In this document: positions 17,716 to 63,874 of the stretch, one piece after another
Layout: the number at the start of each line of letters is the position of its first letter
Position numbering within the stretch: position 1 is the first letter of the stretch
From: Deltaproteobacteria bacterium
Lineage (GTDB): Bacteria > Myxococcota_A > Polyangia > Polyangiales > Houyiibacteriaceae
Direction: 5' to 3'
Length of the DNA stretch: 64,000 nucleotides
NCBI GenBank assembly: GCA_034670305.1
Contig: JAXMNT010000025.1
Coordinates: 43,593 to 107,592, forward strand
Position numbers and translations under genes: made by a program
The notes under the pieces: model-generated
Told to the model about the DNA's origin: nothing
Databases searched by the model: none
Seen by the model: only the letters and a program-made list of their open reading frames with translations

Positions 17716-19590
17716 ATGAATCGAGTGTTCCAGGGTTTTGGGTTCGTGGTCGCGCTGGGGATGTTCGCGTCGCCAGCGCTGGGTCAGGGCAATCAGCCGT
17801 CGACCACGCTCAATCAGTTCCATCCCTCCCAAACCGTGGAGGATGGGTTCGCGCTCAGCCGGCCCGACGACCTGGGTCATCTCCGGTTCGGCGCCCAATT
17901 GCACCTCGACTACGCCAACGACCCACTCGTCTACGAGAGCGACCTCGGGGACTCGAGCTCCGAGTCCCAGCACATCGTGCGTCACCAGCTCACCGGCACC
18001 CTTGGGCTCTCGCTCGGGGTGCTCGATCGTCTGGTCATCTACGCCGGGTTGCCCATCAACCTCGTGATGTCCGGCGACGACACGATGCTGCCGATGGGTG
18101 TCGCGGCGACCGATGGCGCTGGCCTCGGTGACGCCTACCTGGGCGCCCGCATCCGCCTCTTCGGCGAATGGAACGAAGCCATCGCGCTCGCCCTGCAGAT
18201 CACCGCGACCTTCCCGAGCGGCGGTGGGGTGTACCGGGGCGACGAGACACTCACCCTTCATCCCCAGCTCCTCTTCGAGGCGCGCGCGGCGGACAAGGTG
18301 CGTCTGACGGTGAACGTCGGCGCCCGACTCGGCGAAGACCAGACCTTGCTCGGCGATGTTCGGGTCGGCGACGCGTTGACCTTCGGGCTCGGTGTGACGG
18401 CGTCCCTCGTCGGGACCTACACGCGCCCCGATGAGACCCGGCTCGACCTGCACGCGCAGGTGTTCGGCTCCTCCTTCTTCGGGGACTTCTTCGGCGGTGA
18501 AGAGACGCCGCTCGAAGCCCTCGCTGGCCTGAAGCTCCACCTCGGAAACGGGCTGGTCGTGGGCGCGGCCGGTGGCGCGGGCATTCACCGCAGCTACGGC
18601 ACCCCCGATGCGCGTGCGGTCTTGAACCTCGGCTGGGGCCAGGTCCGTGAGGTCGAAGAAGAGCCCGAGCCCGTGGCGGCCGACACGGACCGCGACGGCA
18701 TCCTCGACGACGTCGACGAGTGCCCGACCGAGGCCGAAGACCTCGACGGATTCGAAGACGAAGACGGCTGTCCGGACCCGGACAACGACCAGGATCAGGT
18801 CCCGGACACGACGGATGAGTGTCCGAACGAGCCCGAGGATCGCGACGGGTTCGAGGACGAGAACGGCTGCCCCGATCCCGACAACGACGGCGACGGCATC
18901 CCGGACACGACCGACCAGTGCAAGGACCAAGCAGAGGACATGGACGGCTTCGAAGACGAAGACGGCTGTCCCGAGGCGGACAACGACGAGGACGGACTCG
19001 TGGACGCGGCCGACCGCTGTCCCAACGAAGCCGGCCCGCCCGAGAACCAGGGCTGCCCCGACACCGACCGCGATGGCGACACCGTCGTCGACCGGCTCGA
19101 CAACTGCCCCGACGAACCAGGCACTGTGGAGAACCAGGGCTGCCGGGCACGGCAGCGGGTCCGCATCACGGAGGGCGCGCTCGAGATCTTGGACAAGGTC
19201 TACTTCGCGACCAACCGGGACGTGATCCAGCGCCGCTCGTTCCCGCTTCTGAACAACGTGGCCGCGGTGCTCAACAACCACCCGGAGATCCTGCACATCC
19301 GTGTCGAGGGCCACACCGACGATCGCGGCGACGACAACTACAACCTGGATCTCAGCCAGCGGCGGGCCGCCGCGGTCGTGACCTACCTCGTCGAGCGCGG
19401 CGAAGTCGACGCGTCTCGATTGGTGGCGCAGGGCTTCGGCGAGACCCGGCCCATCGAGCCGAACGAGAGCCGCACTGGACGGGCCGCCAACCGGCGGGTC
19501 GAGTTCAACATCATCCAGGATGGCGAGTCACAGGGCGCCACCGTGCCTGAAACCCCGGCGCAGCCCCCTGCGGAGACGCCCGCGGAGTAG
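17716..19590 (+). CDS. Outer-membrane beta-barrel + thrombospondin type-3 repeats + OmpA domain (TraB-like architecture)
   Basis: Signal peptide, beta-strand-rich N-half, repeated DxDxDGxxDxxDxCP..EDxDGFEDEDGCP, C-terminal IRVEGHTD...LSQRRA...NRRVEF. ATG 17701 is an alternative start. Confidence 0.9.
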   Translation: MNRVFQGFGFVVALGMFASPALGQGNQPSTTLNQFHPSQTVEDGFALSRPDDLGHLRFGAQLHLDYANDPLVYESDLGDSSSESQHIVRHQLTGTLGLSLGVLDRLVIYAGLPINLVMSGDDTMLPMGVAATDGAGLGDAYLGARIRLFGEWNEAIALALQITATFPSGGGVYRGDETLTLHPQLLFEARAADKVRLTVNVGARLGEDQTLLGDVRVGDALTFGLGVTASLVGTYTRPDETRLDLHAQVFGSSFFGDFFGGEETPLEALAGLKLHLGNGLVVGAAGGAGIHRSYGTPDARAVLNLGWGQVREVEEEPEPVAADTDRDGILDDVDECPTEAEDLDGFEDEDGCPDPDNDQDQVPDTTDECPNEPEDRDGFEDENGCPDPDNDGDGIPDTTDQCKDQAEDMDGFEDEDGCPEADNDEDGLVDAADRCPNEAGPPENQGCPDTDRDGDTVVDRLDNCPDEPGTVENQGCRARQRVRITEGALEILDKVYFATNRDVIQRRSFPLLNNVAAVLNNHPEILHIRVEGHTDDRGDDNYNLDLSQRRAAAVVTYLVERGEVDASRLVAQGFGETRPIEPNESRTGRAANRRVEFNIIQDGESQGATVPETPAQPPAETPAE

Positions 19591-21580: not shown

Positions 21581-21917
<337 letters not shown>

Positions 21918-21931
21918 CTGCCTCCAGCGGT

Positions 21932-22044
21932 GCGCCCCTTCTCGCGGAGGTTGGTGCTGGCCCGATGGATGATCCAGCGTAGCGGTCGGCGGGGCGGCGC
22001 CTCAAAGGAGGTCTTCGTGGCCGCTCCGCCGACGCCGCTCCGCT
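21932..22044. other. Conserved structured non-coding motif (copy 1; homolog at 34094)
   Basis: Shares blocks GCGCCCCTTCTCG, GAGGTTGG, GCCCG, CGTAGCGGTC, GGGCGGCGCC, AAAGGAGG, CTTCG in the same order with 34094-34200; GTCGGCGGGGCGGC can pair with GCCGCTCCGCCGAC. Confidence 0.75.
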
Positions 22045-22077
22045 GACGCCGAAGGCCGCGGCCCGTGCCGTTTGTGG

Positions 22078-30663: not shown

Positions 30664-32382
30664 ATGACGGCGAAGAAGAAGTGGGGGTTCTTGCAGCCCA
30701 CGCCGACGCCGTACGATCCGCTCGAGTGGGTGCAGATGCCGCTCGAGGAGCGCGGGCGGCTGGGGTGTCAGGCGTGGGCGCTCGATGGGTACGGCACGCC
30801 GCCCGCGGTGTTTCTCGTCTACCTCGCGAAGATCGCGCTGTACGTGTTCGGGTGGGCGGCCTGCTGCACCACCAGTCCCGCGCTCGGGCCGCTCTCTGAG
30901 ATCGGGACCTGGTGGCTGCACCCCCTCGCGTTCCAGAAAGCCATTCTGTTCAGCATGCTCTTCGAGGGGCTGGGTCTCGGTTGCGGCAGCGGTCCGCTGA
31001 CCGGCCGCTACATGCCGCCCATCGGTGGCCTGCTCTATTGGCTGCGCCCCGGCACCACCAAGCTCCCACTCTTCCGTTCGGCGCCACTCATCGGCGGCCA
31101 CCGGCGCACCTGGTTCGATGTGGCCGTCTACGCGGTGTTCGTCGGCGTGTGCGGGTGGGCGCTCGTGTCGCCCGAGATCGCGCCGGTGCAGCTGCTCGTC
31201 GTCGTGGTCGTCGTGCCCTTGCTCGGGGTGCTCGACAAGACGCTGTTCTTGGCGGCGCGCGCCGAACACTACTGGGTGACCGCGCTCGTCTTTCTCTGGG
31301 CGAGCTCCGGCGACGCAGTCGATTCGGTGACGCTGGTCGCCGGCAGCAAAGCGGTGATGCTCGCGCTCTGGTTCTTCGCGGGGTTCTCGAAACTCAACCA
31401 CCACTTCCCGAGCACCGTGTGCGTGATGACCAGCAACTCACCGCTCACGCGCGGCACGCCGCTTCGCCGCTGGGTGTACCGGAGCTACCCGGACGACCTG
31501 CGCCCTTCGCGGTTCGCCGTCGTACTCGCCCACGCCGGCACGTTGCTCGAACTCTCGATTCCCCTGGTGCTCGTGTTCGCCACGGACGGCCCCTGGCTGA
31601 CGGTGGGGATCGGGCTCGCGCTCCTGCTGCATTGCCACATCACGAGCAGCGTGCCGATGGCCGCGCCGCTCGAGTGGAACGTGCTCATGGTCTACGGGCT
31701 CTTCGCGCTGTTCGTGGCGCACCCGGAGATCCAAGTGTTCGATCTCGGCCTCAGCGGCCTGAGCGTGTTCCTGCTCGTCGCGCTGCTCGCCATTCCGCTC
31801 CTCGGCAACCTCTTCCCGAACCGGGTCTCGTTCCTGCTCGCGATGCGCTACTACGCGGGCAACTGGCCGTACGGCATCTGGCTCTTTCGCGGCGAGAGCT
31901 ACCGCAAGCTCGATCGGCTGACGAAGAGCGCCGCCTGGGTCCACGACCAGCTCGCCCGCTTCTACGATCACGCGACGGCGGTCGGACTGGTCGGCAAGGT
32001 GCTCGCGTTCCGGCTGATGCATCTGCAGGGCCGCTGTCTGCCCAACTTGATCCCGAAGGCCGTCGATCGGCTGCAGGACTTCGAATACGTCGACGGCGAG
32101 ATCATCGCGGGCCTCGCGCTCGGCTGGAACTTCGGCGACGGCCACCTGCACAACGAAACGTTGCTCGCCGCGATTCAAGCCCAGTGTCAGTTCGAACCCG
32201 GCGAGCTCCGTTGCATCTTCGTCGAAGCCCAGCCGCTCTTCGGCAAGACGCTCGAGTACCGAATCGTCGACGCGGCCACGGGACGGATCGAGAAGGGCAC
32301 CTGCGACGTCGCCGAACTCCGAACCCGCCAACCCTGGCAATGCACCCCGGCGGAGACGGCCGATCCGAGGACCGTGTCGTGA
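30664..32382 (+). CDS. DUF3556-like transmembrane protein
   Basis: GFLQP start, GYGTP, GSGPLTGR, DKTLFLAARAEHY, SKLNHHFP, SFLLAMRYYAGNW, GWNFGDGHLHNE. Confidence 0.8.
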   Translation: MTAKKKWGFLQPTPTPYDPLEWVQMPLEERGRLGCQAWALDGYGTPPAVFLVYLAKIALYVFGWAACCTTSPALGPLSEIGTWWLHPLAFQKAILFSMLFEGLGLGCGSGPLTGRYMPPIGGLLYWLRPGTTKLPLFRSAPLIGGHRRTWFDVAVYAVFVGVCGWALVSPEIAPVQLLVVVVVVPLLGVLDKTLFLAARAEHYWVTALVFLWASSGDAVDSVTLVAGSKAVMLALWFFAGFSKLNHHFPSTVCVMTSNSPLTRGTPLRRWVYRSYPDDLRPSRFAVVLAHAGTLLELSIPLVLVFATDGPWLTVGIGLALLLHCHITSSVPMAAPLEWNVLMVYGLFALFVAHPEIQVFDLGLSGLSVFLLVALLAIPLLGNLFPNRVSFLLAMRYYAGNWPYGIWLFRGESYRKLDRLTKSAAWVHDQLARFYDHATAVGLVGKVLAFRLMHLQGRCLPNLIPKAVDRLQDFEYVDGEIIAGLALGWNFGDGHLHNETLLAAIQAQCQFEPGELRCIFVEAQPLFGKTLEYRIVDAATGRIEKGTCDVAELRTRQPWQCTPAETADPRTVS

Positions 32383-33159: not shown

Positions 33160-33436
33160 CTGCACGGTGAGAGCTGTCAGCCGCGTGAGCTGATGAAGTA
33201 CGTGGATGGTCGTGGTGAGCCGACGCGTGGGTTCACGGTCGAGTCGTTCTCGGCCAGCTCCGCCGAGGACCCAGACTCCTCGCCCGGCTTCACGGGGAAT
33301 GGCTGCCGCTCGAAACGTCAGTCGAGCGGGCGTTCGTCGAGTTGGCCGAAGAGGGTGTGGTGCGAGACGACGGCGGAACGTGGTTCTTCGTGGCCGGTCC
33401 TGTGCTGTATGGATGAAGGTCGGGGATGGGCTAGGC

Positions 33437-33628
33437 GCTGTTGCTGCTGACTGCTGGTGCTTCTGCAGCTGACCCGTTGCTGGAAGCGGATGCTGTTGCT
33501 GACTCTGCGTCGACGCTGCTGCTGACGCTGCAGCTGACGCTGCTGCTGACTCTGCGGCTGACGCTGCTGCTGACTCTGCAGCTGACGCTGCAGCTGACTC
33601 TGCAGCTGACCTGACTCTGCAGCTGACC
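33437..33628 (+). repeat. 12-mer tandem array GCTGAC(G/T)CTGCN, locus B
   Basis: Direct reading; degenerate at the left end, regular from about 33520. Confidence 0.9.
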
Positions 33629-33648
33629 ACTGCTCTGTTGTGTGGTGT

Positions 33649-33688
33649 GAACTCCCCCACACTCTCCCGAACTCCCCCGAACTCTCCC
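33649..33688 (+). repeat. Four 10-bp direct repeats (GAACTC[C/T]CCC-like)
   Basis: GAACTCCCCC ACACTCTCCC GAACTCCCCC GAACTCTCCC. Confidence 0.85.
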
Positions 33689-33770
33689 TGAACCAACGAA
33701 CCCGCGGTCGGTGGCTGCACCCTGGGCAGGAGTGAGTCGTCGACGAGAAGGTTGACGGCGGTTCTGCAAA

Positions 33771-34070
33771 TCCGACGCCGAAGCCGAAGCCGACGCCGAC
33801 GCCGATGCCGAAGCCGAAGCCGATGCCGATGCCGACGCCGAAGCCGAAGCCGACGCCGAAGCCGAATCCGAAGCCGAAGCCGAAGCCGACGCCGACGCCG
33901 AAGCCGACGCCGAAGCCGAAGCCGACGCCGACGCCGACGCCGAAGCCGACGCCGAACCCGACGCCGAACCCGAAGCCGACGCCGAAGCTGATGCCGACGA
34001 AGCCGAACCCGACGCCGACCCCGACCCCGACGCCGACGCCGACACCGAACCTGATGCCGACGACGCCGAT
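33771..34070 (+). repeat. Degenerate hexamer array GCCGA[A/C/T], locus B left
   Basis: Direct reading. Confidence 0.95.
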
Positions 34071-34093
34071 GGAACACCCAACGGAACACTGCC

Positions 34094-34271
34094 GCGCCCC
34101 TTCTCGTCAGAGGTTGGCTTGCCCGCGGGGTGTCCGACCGTAGCGGTCTGGGCGGCGCCGCGTAAAGGAGGCCTTCGGCCCGGCGGGATGCCCGCCGCTT
34201 CACTGCGCGCTTCGCGCTTGCTCGTCCTTGACCCGGCACCACCCAGACCGCTGAGGGCGCTTCGCGCCCCC
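34094..34271. other. Conserved structured non-coding motif (copy 2), branched stem-loop
   Basis: Arms 34142-34160 and 34234-34252 pair 17/19; internal hairpins GGCC-TTC-GGCC, CGGCGGG-ATG-CCCGCCG and GCGC-TTC-GCGC; a further GGGCGC-TTC-GCGCCC follows at about 34255-34269. Confidence 0.75.
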
Positions 34272-34312
34272 GGGCAGTTCGCTCGGAAGGCTGACGACCG
34301 GGAGGTCCTACG

Positions 34313-34624
34313 ATGCTGGTATTCGACAAGTCGCTTCTTCTTCTCTCTTTGCTGGTGCGCGAGGTTCTGCCTCGCATTCGCGAGGCGTCGTTGAAGTCGC
34401 AGCTGCGGCGCGCGGCGCAGGCGGTTCCTCTGCTCATTGCGGAGTCTCGGAGCGCGCGGGGTGGGCGGAACCCGGACGGGTTCTCGCGCGCCCTGGGCGA
34501 AGCGCGCGAGGTGAAGGCGGCTCTTCAGGTGGCGGCGGTGATGGGGTACGTCGAGGCGAGTGACGACGTGTACGACTTGGCGGACCACGTCTGCGCGATG
34601 TTGTTCAAGCTGAGTCGGACGTAG
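34313..34624 (+). CDS. Four helix bundle protein (23S rRNA IVS protein / Avd-like superfamily)
   Basis: GGAGG SD; LKSQLRRAAQAVPLLIAE (cf. family QLRRAAxSxxxNIAEG), F..ALGEAREVKAALQVA..MGY, terminal AMLFKL; 103 aa, all helical. Confidence 0.85.
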   Translation: MLVFDKSLLLLSLLVREVLPRIREASLKSQLRRAAQAVPLLIAESRSARGGRNPDGFSRALGEAREVKAALQVAAVMGYVEASDDVYDLADHVCAMLFKLSRT

Positions 34625-34670
34625 GTGGCTCCGGCGGAGCGTCCGTTGGGGGCGCTCCGCTCCGCTCCGC

Positions 34671-34804
34671 TCCGACTCCGAAGCCGAAGCCGAAGCCGAA
34701 GCCGAAGCCGAAGCCGAAGCCGAACGCGACGCCGAAACTGATGCCGAACCCGACGCCGAACGCGACGCCGAACCCGACGCGGACGCCGACCCCGACTTCC
34801 GACT
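34671..34804 (+). repeat. Hexamer array GCCGAA/GCCGAC, locus B right; preceded by (GCTCC)n and a hairpin
   Basis: Direct reading; GGAGCG...CGCTCC hairpin at about 34635-34658. Confidence 0.9.
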
Positions 34805-35741
34805 ACTGCACGCGGACCCGGAGCTGGTAGGTGCCGCAGAGGGCGGCGCCGGGGTGTTCGACGGAGCCGACGCGGATCCACATGAGGCCGTCGGCGTCGT
34901 CGCCGTCGTTGGGCAGGCAGTTGAGGTCGTGGAAGACGCTGACGGTGTTCTCGCCCGTGTCGGCTGTGTCCGAGCAGGTTCCGGCCCCGTCGTTGCGGTC
35001 GCCCGAGCCGCAGTTGTAGGAGAGCGTGCCGCTGTCGCAGGCGAAGCGGACGTCGAGGGTCGGGGTGATGCCGGCGGGGAGGTCGCTGACGGTGACGGTC
35101 ACGTTGGGTGGGCCGCCGCCGGGCACGATGCGCGGGCTGCGGTCGTTGATCTGGATCGAGTACCAGTCCTCGTCGGTCTCGTCGTGCAAGGTCGCGTAGC
35201 GGGTGACGGTGCTGTCGGGAATGTCGGACTCGGTGCCGAGGTGGTGGGGGTCGGACTCGGTGCTCGGTTCTGCGGCGTCCGCGCACGGGACGCACGCGTA
35301 CTCTCCGCTGCAACGCATCGAGGGATCGCAGACGCCACAGTCCAGGGTCTCGCCGCATCCGTCGGTGACGAGGCCGCACTCTGCCGCGAGGCTGTCGCAG
35401 GTCGCGCATGCTTCGTAGGCACACAGATGGGTGTCTTCGTCGCAGTACACCCGCATGCCTTCTTCCGGCTCTGCGCAGGGTGTGTTGGGTGGGCAGGCGT
35501 TCCGGCAGCCGTAGTCCGGCTGGTCGAACGTACTGTCCCTCGCGCACGTGCCATCGTCGCAGCGGTGCTCGAAACTACCGCACGGCGGCGGCCCCGAATC
35601 GAGGTTGGCGTCGACCGCCACCCTGCTGTCCACCCCCGCGTCCCCCGGTGCCGCGTCTCCGCCGCCCCCATCCTCGGGCGACTTCACGACCAGACATCCC
35701 ATCGTCACGACGAGACAACCCCACTTGATACTGCGCGACAT
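34803..35741 (-). CDS. Cys-rich lipoprotein with C-terminal PPC-like beta domain
   Basis: TMG-C lipobox, DAG-rich linker, ECGLVTDGCGETLDCGVC repeat typical of myxobacteria, DEDWY motif. Confidence 0.75.
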   Translation of the reverse strand: MSRSIKWGCLVVTMGCLVVKSPEDGGGGDAAPGDAGVDSRVAVDANLDSGPPPCGSFEHRCDDGTCARDSTFDQPDYGCRNACPPNTPCAEPEEGMRVYCDEDTHLCAYEACATCDSLAAECGLVTDGCGETLDCGVCDPSMRCSGEYACVPCADAAEPSTESDPHHLGTESDIPDSTVTRYATLHDETDEDWYSIQINDRSPRIVPGGGPPNVTVTVSDLPAGITPTLDVRFACDSGTLSYNCGSGDRNDGAGTCSDTADTGENTVSVFHDLNCLPNDGDDADGLMWIRVGSVEHPGAALCGTYQLRVRVQ

Positions 35742-43595: not shown

Positions 43596-43826
43596 GCTGA
43601 TTGCCGCTGATTCTGCCGCTGATTCTGCCGCTGATTCTGCCGCTGATGCTGCCGCTGATGCTGCCGCTGATGCTGCCGCTGATTCTGCCGCTGATGCTGC
43701 CGCTGATGCTGCCGCTGATGCTGCCGCTGATGCTGCCGCTGATGCTGCCGCTGATGCTGCCGCTGATGCTGCCGCTGATGCTGTCGCTGATGCTGCCGCT
43801 GATGCTGCCGCTGATGCTGCCGCTGA
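43596..43826 (+). repeat. 12-mer tandem array GCTGAT(G/T)CTGCC x18, locus C
   Basis: 18 full units from 43606 to 43821 plus partial flanks. Confidence 0.97.
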
Positions 43827-44090
43827 CGGTGCCCGGGGATGGGCGCATGCCCCGCCGCTGCTGCGTCCCTCCAACTCCCCCCTCTCCCGAAACCAAACCA
43901 AGAGCCGACGAGAACCGGCCACCAAGCAGGAGAGCCCCGCCCACGAGAAACAATCCAGCGGTTGGCTCTGGGGCTCAACCGGAATGACTGGTGACTTGCC
44001 AAGCGTGCACGTGGTCATGCCTGCGGGCGTTGCGTGACTTGTCGGCGCCCCTCCGTTTTGGGGGGAGTTCCGTCGCAGAAACCCCAGGGT

Positions 44091-44231
44091 GCCGAAGCCG
44101 GACGCCGACGCCGAAGCCGATGCCGATGCCGAAGCCGATGCCGACGCCGAAGCCGAAGCCGACGCCGAAGCCGATGCCGATGCCGATGCCGAAGCCGAAG
44201 CCGATGCCGATGCCGATGCCGATGCCGACCC
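44091..44231 (+). repeat. Degenerate hexamer array GCCGA[A/C/T], locus C
   Basis: Direct reading. Confidence 0.95.
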
Positions 44232-63736: not shown

Positions 63737-63874
63737 GCGGAACCGGTCGCGGAGGCGGTCGCGGTCGCGGAAGCGGAAGCGGAGGCGGTCGCGGTCGCGG
63801 AAGCGGAAGCGGAAGCGGAAGCGGAAGCGGAAGCGGAAGCGGAAGCGGAAGCGGAAGCGGAAGCGGAAGCGGAG
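63737..63874 (+). repeat. Hexamer array GCGGAA/GCGGTC/GCGGAG, locus D
   Basis: Direct reading, immediately after stop 63723. Confidence 0.95.

Follow-up and report, generated by a model that had tools for sequence, protein, structure and literature searches.

What a small gene of the four-helix-bundle type stands for when it is embedded in tandem repeats and structured DNA is the question raised by one intergenic block of a marine myxobacterium with a 7.9-Mb genome. In the window, i.e., the whole stretch of 64,000 nucleotides analysed here, this block lies between two convergent genes (30664-32382, + strand; 34803-35741, - strand) and follows the order tandem array, structured leader, open reading frame (ORF) of 103 aa, hairpin and second array. 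This order had been noted from the sequence in a preliminary description and is confirmed here, with Tandem Repeats Finder (TRF) and direct reading placing the modules, including the branched stem-loop and the hairpin, at or near where they had first been located (Table 1). To our knowledge, the family to which the gene belongs (PF05635/TIGR02436), widespread and with solved structures, is without known function outside DGRs, and the origin of ORF-bearing rRNA intervening sequences (IVS), as well as that of bacterial short-period repeat arrays, is unexplained.

Table 1. Positions in the window of the modules of the block and of the two related sites.
Feature	Position	Strand	Basis
12/24-nt tandem array, CTGCAGCTGACG-type	33437..33628	+	TRF rows 33485-33610, 33512-33610, 33594-33628
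C-rich 10-nt repeats, GAACTCCCCC	33649..33693	+	TRF period 10, 4.4 copies
Upstream GCCGAH hexamer array, class cognate to subfamily A	33772..34060	+	TRF, 48.7 copies
Variable spacer, array to leader	34061..34094	+	Unconserved among 12 aligned copies
Leader 5' part, hairpin P0 (CCUUC/GGAGG type)	34095..34135	+	nhmmer leader match; stem is CCACC/GGUGG in copy C16
Structured leader core	34136..34291	+	Model R1 match, covariation, MFE
Shine-Dalgarno-like GGGAGG	34300..34305	+	Direct reading; AGG-rich motifs at same place in paralogs
103-aa four-helix-bundle protein gene, subfamily A	34313..34624	+	TIGR02436, PF05635, AF2, Foldseek, dN/dS
3' hairpin, terminator-like, without U tract	34633..34661	+	Direct reading; stem covaries among paralogs
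Downstream GCCGAH array, direct orientation relative to upstream array	34678..34796	+	TRF
Gene-less remnant: GCCGAH array and initial ~115 nt of an A-type leader, fused to a terminator remnant	21600..22049	+	TRF, nhmmer, reading
Arrays without cassette: 12-mer array, ~215-bp dispersed repeat, GCCGAH array	43602..44228	+	TRF, reading, BLAST copies

Considering the protein, the ORF scores 43.5 bits with TIGR02436 (cut-off 24) and 42.6 bits with PF05635 (cut-off 33.8), i.e., above both curated cut-offs, and thus belongs, as had been proposed, to the family of the 23S rRNA intervening-sequence protein (23S_rRNA_IVP), also called the "S23 ribosomal protein family." The predicted fold (AF2 pLDDT 92.9) comprises four helices (residues 3-21, 25-47, 54-76, and 84-102) and is aligned by Foldseek with the family members 2GSC and 2RLD, five chains each, at a TM of 0.82-0.85, the former being also retrieved by phmmer (E = 3.5e-6). 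The relatedness to Avd first suspected from the sequence is borne out as a fold match, at a TM of 0.68-0.79 to Avd chains with a sequence identity of only 10-13%. Because 2GSC, 2RLD and Avd all have five chains, the protein is probably a pentameric basic barrel, as are Avd and the crystallised relatives; the pI is 8.4-9.4. PADLOC left the four-helix-bundle protein unmatched. While profile scores, length (103 aa) and four-helix fold are those of the family at large, the present case differs by some 40 paralogs associated with a conserved structured leader and with class-specific tandem arrays, a combination for which no description was found in the searched literature, as far as the accessible portions of these sources extend.

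Respective to the block itself, the modules had been taken as parts of a single element, which stands for the leader, the gene and the hexamer array but not for the 12-mer array and the C-rich module; these two belong to other repeat families and accompany only three cassettes. The 12-mer, present in 8.2 copies at 33485-33628 by TRF and direct reading, is part of a 12/24-nt array that is not cassette-specific, with an array at the same position in another copy (C46:27000-27160). The C-rich 10-nt repeats form the left portion of a dispersed repeat distinct from the cassette, with 17 further BLAST matches on ~10 other contigs; two of these matches lie upstream of other cassettes (C46:27210 and C1:195233). 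A second complete copy of identical module order was found at C46:27000-28250, which, with the genome-wide association of arrays and cassettes, takes the arrangement well beyond chance. The nhmmer leader match of the window copy (C25:77687-77901) corresponds to 34095-34309, and the stem of the 3' hairpin reads GGAGCG/CGCUCC, GGUGCG/CGCACC or GGGGCG/CGCCCC depending on the copy. Consensus scans of 33300-34900 gave 0 sites for sigma-70 promoters and 0 for intrinsic terminators, and a by-eye look for a sigma-54 motif gave nothing convincing. As for the recurrence of the non-coding modules without the gene, which the preliminary description had placed at 21.6-22.0 kb and 43.5-44.2 kb, both array sites exist, and only the former carries a partial leader. 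There, a GCCGAH array (21600-21910) precedes a leader piece and terminator remnant (21933-22049; nhmmer leader positions 2-115 at C25:65525-65641). The latter site is composed of a 12-mer array (43602-43826), a C-rich module and a GCCGAH array (44090-44228), its middle (43866-44075) belonging to a separate dispersed repeat according to the BLAST copies, and no leader was matched there by nhmmer or covariance-model searches.

The leader, of about 220 nt, is multi-branched, with a long closing helix around three hairpins, then two more hairpins, and a conserved UAAAGG...CCUUGA helix in its core, for which the minimum free energy is -128 kcal/mol (z = -2.7). Covariation supports this fold, which is sense-strand specific. 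Over 31 distinct leaders, 92.2% of the cells are paired against 41-44% with slid partners, and both-sided (compensatory) changes occur at 30 of the 54 pairs, these counts being taken from an alignment fitted to the model and as such favouring the structure; the covariation score of 0.357, against 0.109 in shuffled alignments, was reached by none of 500 shuffles. With model R1, the window leader scores 138.8 bits in sense versus 34.9 bits in antisense, and the A-type copies 104-177 bits versus at most 35 bits; moreover, conserved G-U pairs are compatible with the sense strand only. Among the A copies, leader columns are 92% identical, which exceeds what synonymous divergence would allow. The hairpin loops are mostly UUC or UGC triloops, not canonical UNCG tetraloops. 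In Rfam 15, no match at gathering score was obtained over the whole window, and an E-value scan of 33300-34900 returned only chance-level matches over the leader. Of note, RNAalifold applied to an ordinary MAFFT alignment covering the three subfamilies missed the long-range helix, since this alignment is not structure-aware, and the covariance-model alignment was used instead. The leader was also considered as a template complementary to the array unit, for which the eye finds only partial hexamer matches, within chance at 68% GC.

At the scale of the genome, TIGR02436 has 49 matches and covariance model R2 detects 40 leaders, 36 of which sit at most 400 nt upstream of a TIGR02436 match. The remaining four full leaders are gene-less and are joined by three shorter remnants, some gene-less copies being internally deleted; the idea of a dispersed family with gene-bearing and gene-less members, put forward from the window alone, is thereby upheld. 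By their leaders, the copies fall into subfamilies A (15), B1 (9), and B2 (16). Purifying selection acts on these old paralogs, dN/dS being 0.056 (subfamily A, 12 copies), 0.095 and 0.14 in the three subfamilies for dS of 0.61, 0.55 and 0.40, respectively. Only two pairs of cassettes from different sites reach at least 93% identity over at least 250 bp, and the tract shared is restricted to leader, gene and hairpin. Recent mobility of the element, first envisaged as a mobile candidate, is not supported by such divergence under selection and such scarcity of near-identical copies. About ten contigs end inside or beside cassettes.

The tandem arrays are associated with these cassettes in both position and class. 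An array lies within 150 nt upstream of the leader in 36 of the 40 copies, versus 8.3% for non-coding positions drawn at random and 9.4% for the 5' ends of genes, and within 100 nt downstream of the gene in 20 of 36 copies, versus 15% of gene 3' ends, all these controls resting on crude gene calls. The distances are themselves confined, i.e., 33-131 nt between array and leader core (36/40 copies) and 30-73 nt downstream of the gene (20/36). The class of the array follows the subfamily, namely GCCGAN with A (13/15), CCGCTN with B1 (7/9) and CAGNNN with B2 (15/16), with 0 cross-assignments, and the GCCGAN arrays of these 13 A-type copies are upstream and on the strand of the leader. The genome-wide link of arrays and leader motif to four-helix-bundle genes, which the preliminary description had named as a check, is strong. 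Downstream, 5 of 14 A-type copies and most B1 copies have an array that agrees with the upstream one in class and orientation, the B1 ends being sharp with 0-8 nt between cassette and array; in B2 cassettes, upstream and downstream arrays are of different, unrelated classes. The dominant unit variant differs from the array of one copy to that of the next, a sign of local expansion, and in B-type leaders TTCGGN-like units adjoin the array. Arrays are nonetheless common in the genome at large, where they account for 14.7% of non-coding DNA and 34-55% of the spacers above 200 bp contain them. Within each class, a leader adjoins only 2-12% of the arrays, and 391-582 GCCGAN arrays are counted versus 15 A-type leaders, so most arrays need no adjacent gene; those of GCCGAN type without cassette are mainly found at gene 3' ends and in convergent spacers.

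The layout recurs in other myxobacterial genera. Genome G005 exhibits an array, an R2 leader match, an ORF, a hairpin and a further array in succession. In the complete genome G012, 24 of the 27 genes are preceded by an array whose end lies 161-357 nt upstream, versus 9.3% of control 1.9-kb windows, a per-window null that is not based on gene calls, and arrays cover only 0.43% of the control DNA; the G012 leaders keep a GUAAAsss...sssUUGAC helix, in which 5-9 of 20 sequences show CG/GC swaps. Beyond these, an alignment-based scan gave 6 distant loci, from other Myxococcota MAGs, and 6 of 6 have arrays of 6-7 nt within 170 nt of the gene. Leaders themselves are less easily followed: at whole-genome scale, R2 matched only G005 among 30 relatives and R3 only G012 among 61 genomes including G000; with filters off, searches of the loci gave weak matches at the expected places in G030, G012, G013 and G008 and nothing convincing at the 6 MAG loci. 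No close relative of the A-type protein was found in a scan of 185,579 species genomes. The genes flanking the block were sought in 30 relatives, where the closest are in G013 (65 and 52% identity), on different contigs. In public reads, the locus is present in four runs of one plastic-metagenome study; short-read contigs from three of these runs and from one marine run with a small share of the words of the locus break in every repeat, and none spans the block.

Taken as a description, the block is very probably one copy of an old, selected, multi-copy cassette made of an array, a structured 5' leader of ~220 nt, a 103-aa Avd-like ORF, a hairpin and, often, a second direct array. We prefer to see in the leader, and probably in the arrays as well, nucleic-acid partners of the protein, and description and mechanism taken together have, in our view, slightly better than even prospects of being right. 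Respective to the mechanism only, namely binding of the protein to its own leader stem-loops and to cognate repeats, we grant this tentative proposal somewhat less than even prospects. The array-leader-gene unit would be transcribed as one RNA, and the protein would bind loop-capped stem-loops of its own leader, as Avd grips a tetraloop-capped stem in the DGR ribonucleoprotein. The same protein would bind the cognate hexamer repeats, as RNA or DNA. As such, the cassette could be a self-contained protein-plus-ligand unit, autoregulatory or RNP-forming, and the solo arrays, present by the hundreds in the rest of the genome, might provide further sites for the same proteins. Counting against this reading are the large excess of solo arrays over cassettes, the differing array classes on the two sides of B2 copies, the triloops in place of UNCG tetraloops, the empty promoter scan and the poor transfer of the leader models between genera.

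The closest model is Avd of the DGRs (bAvd, 4DWL; bRT-Avd-RNA, 8UB7, 8UBB, and 8UBE), which resembles the present protein by its fold. Avd is described as a basic pentamer that grips an RNA stem with a tetraloop cap, located beside its own gene; the contact is with an 11-bp stem under a UNCG loop, and 207 of 278 DGRs are predicted to have stem-loops of this kind (preprint 10.1101/2023.10.23.563531). The difference is the lack of a DGR reverse transcriptase (RT) here: no RT of the DGR clade was found in the genome, where the three PF00078 matches are retron type XIII and lie off the contig of the window. The cassette is not a DGR and can do without a reverse transcriptase. With the ORF-bearing IVS of 23S rRNA (S23p IVS of Coxiella burnetii; Leptospira), suspected of being selfish or mobile in the part of the source available (PMC4990558), the cassette shares a small ORF of the same family in a compact, highly structured non-coding frame. 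The IVS differ in being inserted in helix 25/45, whereas the window copy lies between protein genes, and the only 23S gene (on C85), 3013 nt long versus 2925 positions in the model, contains no ORF-sized insert. They further have terminal inverted repeats forming an RNase III stem, in place of which direct arrays (A, B1) or arrays of unrelated classes (B2) are found here, and their structure encloses the ORF instead of standing 5' of it. A small oligomeric protein reading short tandem repeats upstream of a regulated gene is exemplified by TRAP with the triplet repeats of the trp leader and by the omega protein with its heptads; the likeness is one of mechanism only, with no homology, and the binding is in our case a proposal.

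These comparisons bear on the alternatives, of which mobility is the live rival, although we consider it rather unlikely. An IVS-type cassette of ~620 bp (leader, ORF and hairpin), selfish or domesticated, would integrate into arrays of a preferred class or at their ends, the protein serving its own mobility and gene-less copies having decayed. Same-class direct arrays on both sides, as in most B1 and 5 of 14 A-type copies, do make the cassette look like an insert splitting an array, and the sharp B1 ends abutting arrays, the seven gene-less remnants, the contigs ending at cassettes, the confinement of recent identity to leader, gene and hairpin, and the long-standing suspicion about ORF-bearing IVS all point the same way. 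Against it stand the age of the paralogs, each under purifying selection, the near-identity of only two different-site pairs, and the lack of any linked transposase, integrase, RT or HUH gene; alignments of the ends exhibit no terminal inverted repeats such as a transposon or MITE would have, and duplication of a repeat unit at the target would go unseen within an array. Conversely, the arrays could be by-products of the cassettes, i.e., slippage or recombination seeded at repeat-like ends (e.g., CUUCGG-type hairpins) and later scattered, which we judge improbable. That class follows subfamily, that each copy has its own dominant unit variant, that TTCGGN-like units of B-type leaders adjoin the array and that arrays are rare in G012 yet stand beside 24 of its 27 genes all speak for such seeding; the small fraction of arrays adjoining a leader, and the preference of GCCGAN arrays for cassette-free gene 3' ends and convergent spacers, speak against it.

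Less probable still, and about equally so, are two further readings. Cassettes and microsatellites might both gather in the permissive long spacers of a repeat-rich genome without any functional link, and the abundance of arrays in non-coding DNA and in long spacers gives some ground for it; this reading is already disfavoured by the fixed distances on either side, by the perfect class matching and by the same pattern in G012, where arrays are rare. The preliminary description had proposed, as speculation, an enzyme acting in trans with the folded ssDNA or RNA and the arrays as its substrates or products; a DGR-, retron- or telomerase-like RT, or an HUH/Y1 enzyme, would be candidates. The Avd-like fold, the adjacency of hexamer arrays and structured RNA, and the presence in the genome of 3 RTs and 11 Y1-transposase-like ORFs are in keeping with this, but the search for co-occurring RT or HUH genes yielded no DGR RT and no linked HUH. 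All three RTs are assigned to retron type XIII (PADLOC, 504-517 bits), none is adjacent and the nearest is ~5 kb from one copy; as for the 11 Y1/HUH matches (PF01797), none adjoins a cassette or lies on the contig of the window; the shortest distance to a four-helix-bundle match is ~2.6 kb, on C15, and all others are at least 12 kb away. The cassette hence lacks the adjacent Y1/HUH transposase of IS200/IS605 or REP-RAYT ssDNA elements. The repeat tables of the window show no TR/VR-type pair, and the sense-strand bias together with the link to an ORF fits an mRNA leader.

Returning to the preferred reading, in which leader and arrays would be partners of the protein, the genome offers a clean natural experiment, with some 40 paralogs under selection that fall into three subfamilies of distinct repeat class and share a covarying, non-Rfam leader. 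The pairs open to testing are A with GCCGAH, B1 with CCGCUU and B2 with CAGCGG, to which the leader hairpins of each protein are added. Should binding prove specific, these would be programmable repeat- or stem-loop-binding proteins and would give a function to dense bacterial microsatellites. By a doubtful extension, Avd-like four-helix-bundle proteins might in general read or organise short tandem repeats in a sequence-specific manner, with a 6-7-nt repeat and a structured leader RNA proper to each subfamily; a ~40-member family would have its working sites in the arrays, ~15% of the non-coding DNA, and such a partnership would also lie behind repeat-flanked genes of the family in other phyla, including the ORF-bearing rRNA IVS. 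In this respect, "23S rRNA IVP" is listed among the domains linked to CRISPR-like repeats in PMC10910872.

The cassette, i.e., a short-period tandem array followed by a structured leader of ~220 nt, an ORF for a four-helix-bundle protein, a 3′ hairpin and often a second array, is represented in the window (C25:43593-107592 of a myxobacterial source genome of 7.93 Mb, 68% GC and 105 contigs) by a copy sitting between convergent genes, as the preliminary description had it, where direct reading and the repeat table recovered every module listed. The locus is also contained in public reads from plastic metagenome runs. The ORF matches the profiles TIGR02436 (43.5 bits, cut-off 24) and PF05635 (42.6 bits, cut-off 33.8), and its AlphaFold model, obtained with a four-sequence alignment as input, is confident (pLDDT 92.9) and comprises four helices. 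The nearest structures are 2GSC and 2RLD (TM 0.82-0.85), followed by chains of Avd, the accessory protein of diversity-generating retroelements (DGR) (TM 0.68-0.79), so that the kinship with Avd claimed at the outset holds at the level of the fold.

Modules of the cassette copy in the window, in 5′ to 3′ order
Feature	Window position	Detail
12/24-nt array	33485-33628	
C-rich 10-mers	33649-33693	
Upstream GCCGAH hexamer array	33772-34060	48.7 units
Folded region (leader)	between upstream GCCGAH array and ORF	
GGGAGG motif	before ORF	
ORF	34313-34624	103 aa
3′ hairpin	34633-34661	
Second GCCGAH array	34678-34796	

A six-frame search of the source genome returned 49 TIGR02436 matches, among which 12 copies are of near-identical design to that of the window (subfamily A); their similarity begins ~40 nt past the GCCGAH array, spans the leader and the ORF, and stops just past the 3′ hairpin. 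The leaders of the two other subfamilies, B1 and B2, have the same architecture with very different helix sequences. Two covariance models were built, namely R1 for the A-type core and R2 from 33 leaders, the latter locating 40 leaders genome-wide, which is a lower bound since ~10 contigs end in or beside cassettes. Of these, 36 precede a family match by ≤400 nt, with visible damage in three of the genes, and four are full leaders devoid of a gene, to which nhmmer added three shorter remnants; the dispersed family with gene-bearing and gene-less members proposed earlier is thus borne out. Among the gene-less sites, that at 21.9 kb in the window is one of the leader remnants. The 12-mer array and the C-rich module upstream of the window copy are found again, in the same order, at contig C46; they accompany only three cassettes and are parts of other dispersed repeats. 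No R2 leader match was obtained for a fourth clade of the family (C15:131712, C1:298705 and C14:16492), and the two copies read, i.e., the first two, carry a short (GGGCAA)n array directly 3′ of the stop codon.

The leader is a real structure, formed on the sense strand. Across 31 distinct sequences, standard pairs make up 92.2% of pair cells against 41-44% with the 3′ partners slid by 1-3 columns, a margin that is large even though the alignment was fitted to the model and hence biased toward structure. Both-sided changes occur in 30 of 54 pairs (225 cells), the covariation score reaches 0.357 against 0.109 upon shuffling (0/500 shuffles attaining it) and 0.04-0.10 in slid controls, and compensatory changes are also seen in plain alignments. 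Respective to the strand, A-type leaders match at 104-177 bits in sense and ≤35 bits in antisense, and conserved G-U pairs are compatible with the sense strand only. The fold consists of (i) a long outer helix, wholly different in sequence between subfamilies, (ii) a conserved UCAAGG...CCUUGA helix, (iii) two or three internal hairpins, and (iv) two 3′ hairpins ahead of the ribosome-binding site; a search of Rfam 15 gave no match. Extra hairpin-forming insertions of ~80 nt interrupt otherwise conserved leaders at C10:57105-57384 and C19:96427-96725 of the source genome and at L069, L094 and L104, loci of a related genome, their positions differing between the two genomes.

The source genome holds 1,409 tandem arrays of ≥60 bp and 582 GCCGAN arrays of ≥8 units; relative to crude gene calls of our own (5,948 genes, 87.7% coding), arrays represent 14.7% of non-coding DNA and are present in 18.8% of spacers. 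Against this background, the association with the family extends genome-wide: an array lies ≤150 nt upstream of 36/40 leaders, the corresponding figures being 8.3% for non-coding positions drawn at random and 9.4% for the 5′ ends of genes, and ≤100 nt downstream of 20/36 genes, where the 3′ ends of genes in general give 15%. Gene subfamily and array class go together with no cross-assignment, two of the cases scored as "none" being arrays missed by the regular expression. Flanking arrays are in direct, not inverted, orientation; the same class occupies both sides in most B1 copies and 5/14 A copies, and in B2 copies the upstream class is CAGCNN and the downstream one (C/T)TCGGC. Only 2-12% of arrays, depending on the class, adjoin a leader. 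GCCGAN arrays (e.g., window 21600-21910, 44090-44228 and 63737-63873) generally favour gene 3′ ends (nearest end 3′ for 324, 5′ for 80) and convergent spacers (183 of 445 placed, against 16.5% of all spacers), reading NTCGGC on the sense strand of the upstream gene in 203 cases and GCCGAN in 121.

Divergence among paralogs (medians) and upstream array class per gene subfamily
Subfamily	nt identity	aa identity	dS	dN/dS	Upstream array	Leaders
A (12 copies)	87%	95%	0.61	0.056	GCCGAN	13/15
B1	87%	92%	0.55	0.095	CCGCTN	7/9
B2	88%	91%	0.40	0.14	CAGNNN	15/16

Judging from these identities and substitution rates, the paralogs are old and each kept by selection. Leader columns in A are 92% identical, a level too high to be expected from synonymous sites. 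In one pair of copies the coding sequences are identical, but the tract they have in common extends only from mid-leader to ~100 nt past the stop codon, which resembles gene conversion.

Several identities could be discarded. The three reverse transcriptases of the genome are of retron type XIII and unlinked to the cassettes, which rejects a DGR, and none of the Y1/HUH genes sought genome-wide adjoins a cassette; the enzyme acting in trans postulated in the preliminary description is not supported. An rRNA intervening sequence (IVS) was likewise rejected, the single 23S gene having no ORF-sized insert and the cassette flanks forming no stem. Eleven PF01797 (Y1 transposase-like) ORFs of ~235-249 aa, on eleven contigs and none in the window, could be REP-associated transposases.

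A self-contained protein-plus-ligand unit is the most likely reading, as it best fits a selected protein, a selected sense-strand 5′ structure and a class-matched array at fixed distance. In DGRs, the Avd pentamer is described as holding a stem of 11 bp with a UNCG cap that lies beside its own gene, all five protomers being in contact with it; such stem-loops are predicted in 207/278 DGRs (10.1101/2023.10.23.563531). By analogy, the four-helix-bundle protein would bind its own leader and probably its cognate repeats as well, which would yield autoregulation or an RNP, solo arrays then being further sites for these proteins. Its chief competitor is a mobile cassette of IVS type that would target arrays, as suggested by sharp ends set within arrays, gene-less remnants and a reported long-standing suspicion of mobility for IVS ORFs (PMC4990558); the age of the copies, the selection acting on them and the absence of a linked enzyme argue against it.

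Beyond the source genome, the TIGR02436 family is present in 22 of the 31 genomes searched (source genome counted), with up to 32 matches in one relative, and the relatives of the gene with named records are Myxococcota MAGs. The leader sequence itself is lineage-specific: R2 searched against 30 whole genomes of relatives matched only G005, of another genus, where the match immediately precedes a family gene and the whole unit has hexamer arrays of other units on either side. For a further leader model, R3, searched in 61 genomes of the family (source genome included), the only match was in G012. With filters off, weak leader matches were obtained at the expected places in G030, G012, G013 and G008. 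In the complete genome G012 (9.07 Mb, 61% GC), an array ends 161-357 nt upstream of 24/27 family genes; evenly spaced control DNA totalling 400 kb has arrays over only 0.43% of its length and in 9.3% of its 1.9-kb windows. A GUAAAsss...sssUUGAC helix is common to the leaders of G012, and 5-9 of 20 sequences show CG/GC swaps in it. Four-helix-bundle genes of G012 often form convergent pairs 55-65 bp apart (e.g., L093, L094 and L096, on C1 around 7.848, 6.939 and 8.530 Mb), each gene having a leader to itself and, upstream, an array whose class differs from that of its partner. In other Myxococcota MAGs, arrays of 6-7-nt units lie ≤170 nt from the gene at 6/6 distant loci.

Neither the protein family nor IVSs with an ORF are new, and "23S rRNA IVP" is listed among domains linked to CRISPR-like repeats (PMC10910872, Fig. 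6 legend). As far as the available text of the literature searched extends, no paper was found that describes the TIGR02436/PF05635 family as accompanied by repeat arrays or by a leader RNA. New here are the family size, the covariation of the leader, the hexamer arrays in direct orientation and the one-to-one correspondence between repeat classes and gene subfamilies.

Two other repeats occur in the window. At 43866-44075, a dispersed repeat of ~215 bp looks MITE-like, as the C-rich sequence at its left end, AACTCCCCCC, can pair with the complementary G-rich sequence at its right end, GGGGGGAGTT; it is present in about ten copies, complete or partial (C44:49758, C28:1385, C4:117486, C75:8143, C9:22054 and others), usually beside arrays. 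At 18714-18993, a repeat of 99-nt period (2.8 copies) has many GAC/GAG codons and probably encodes a protein repeat of the acidic calcium-binding type.
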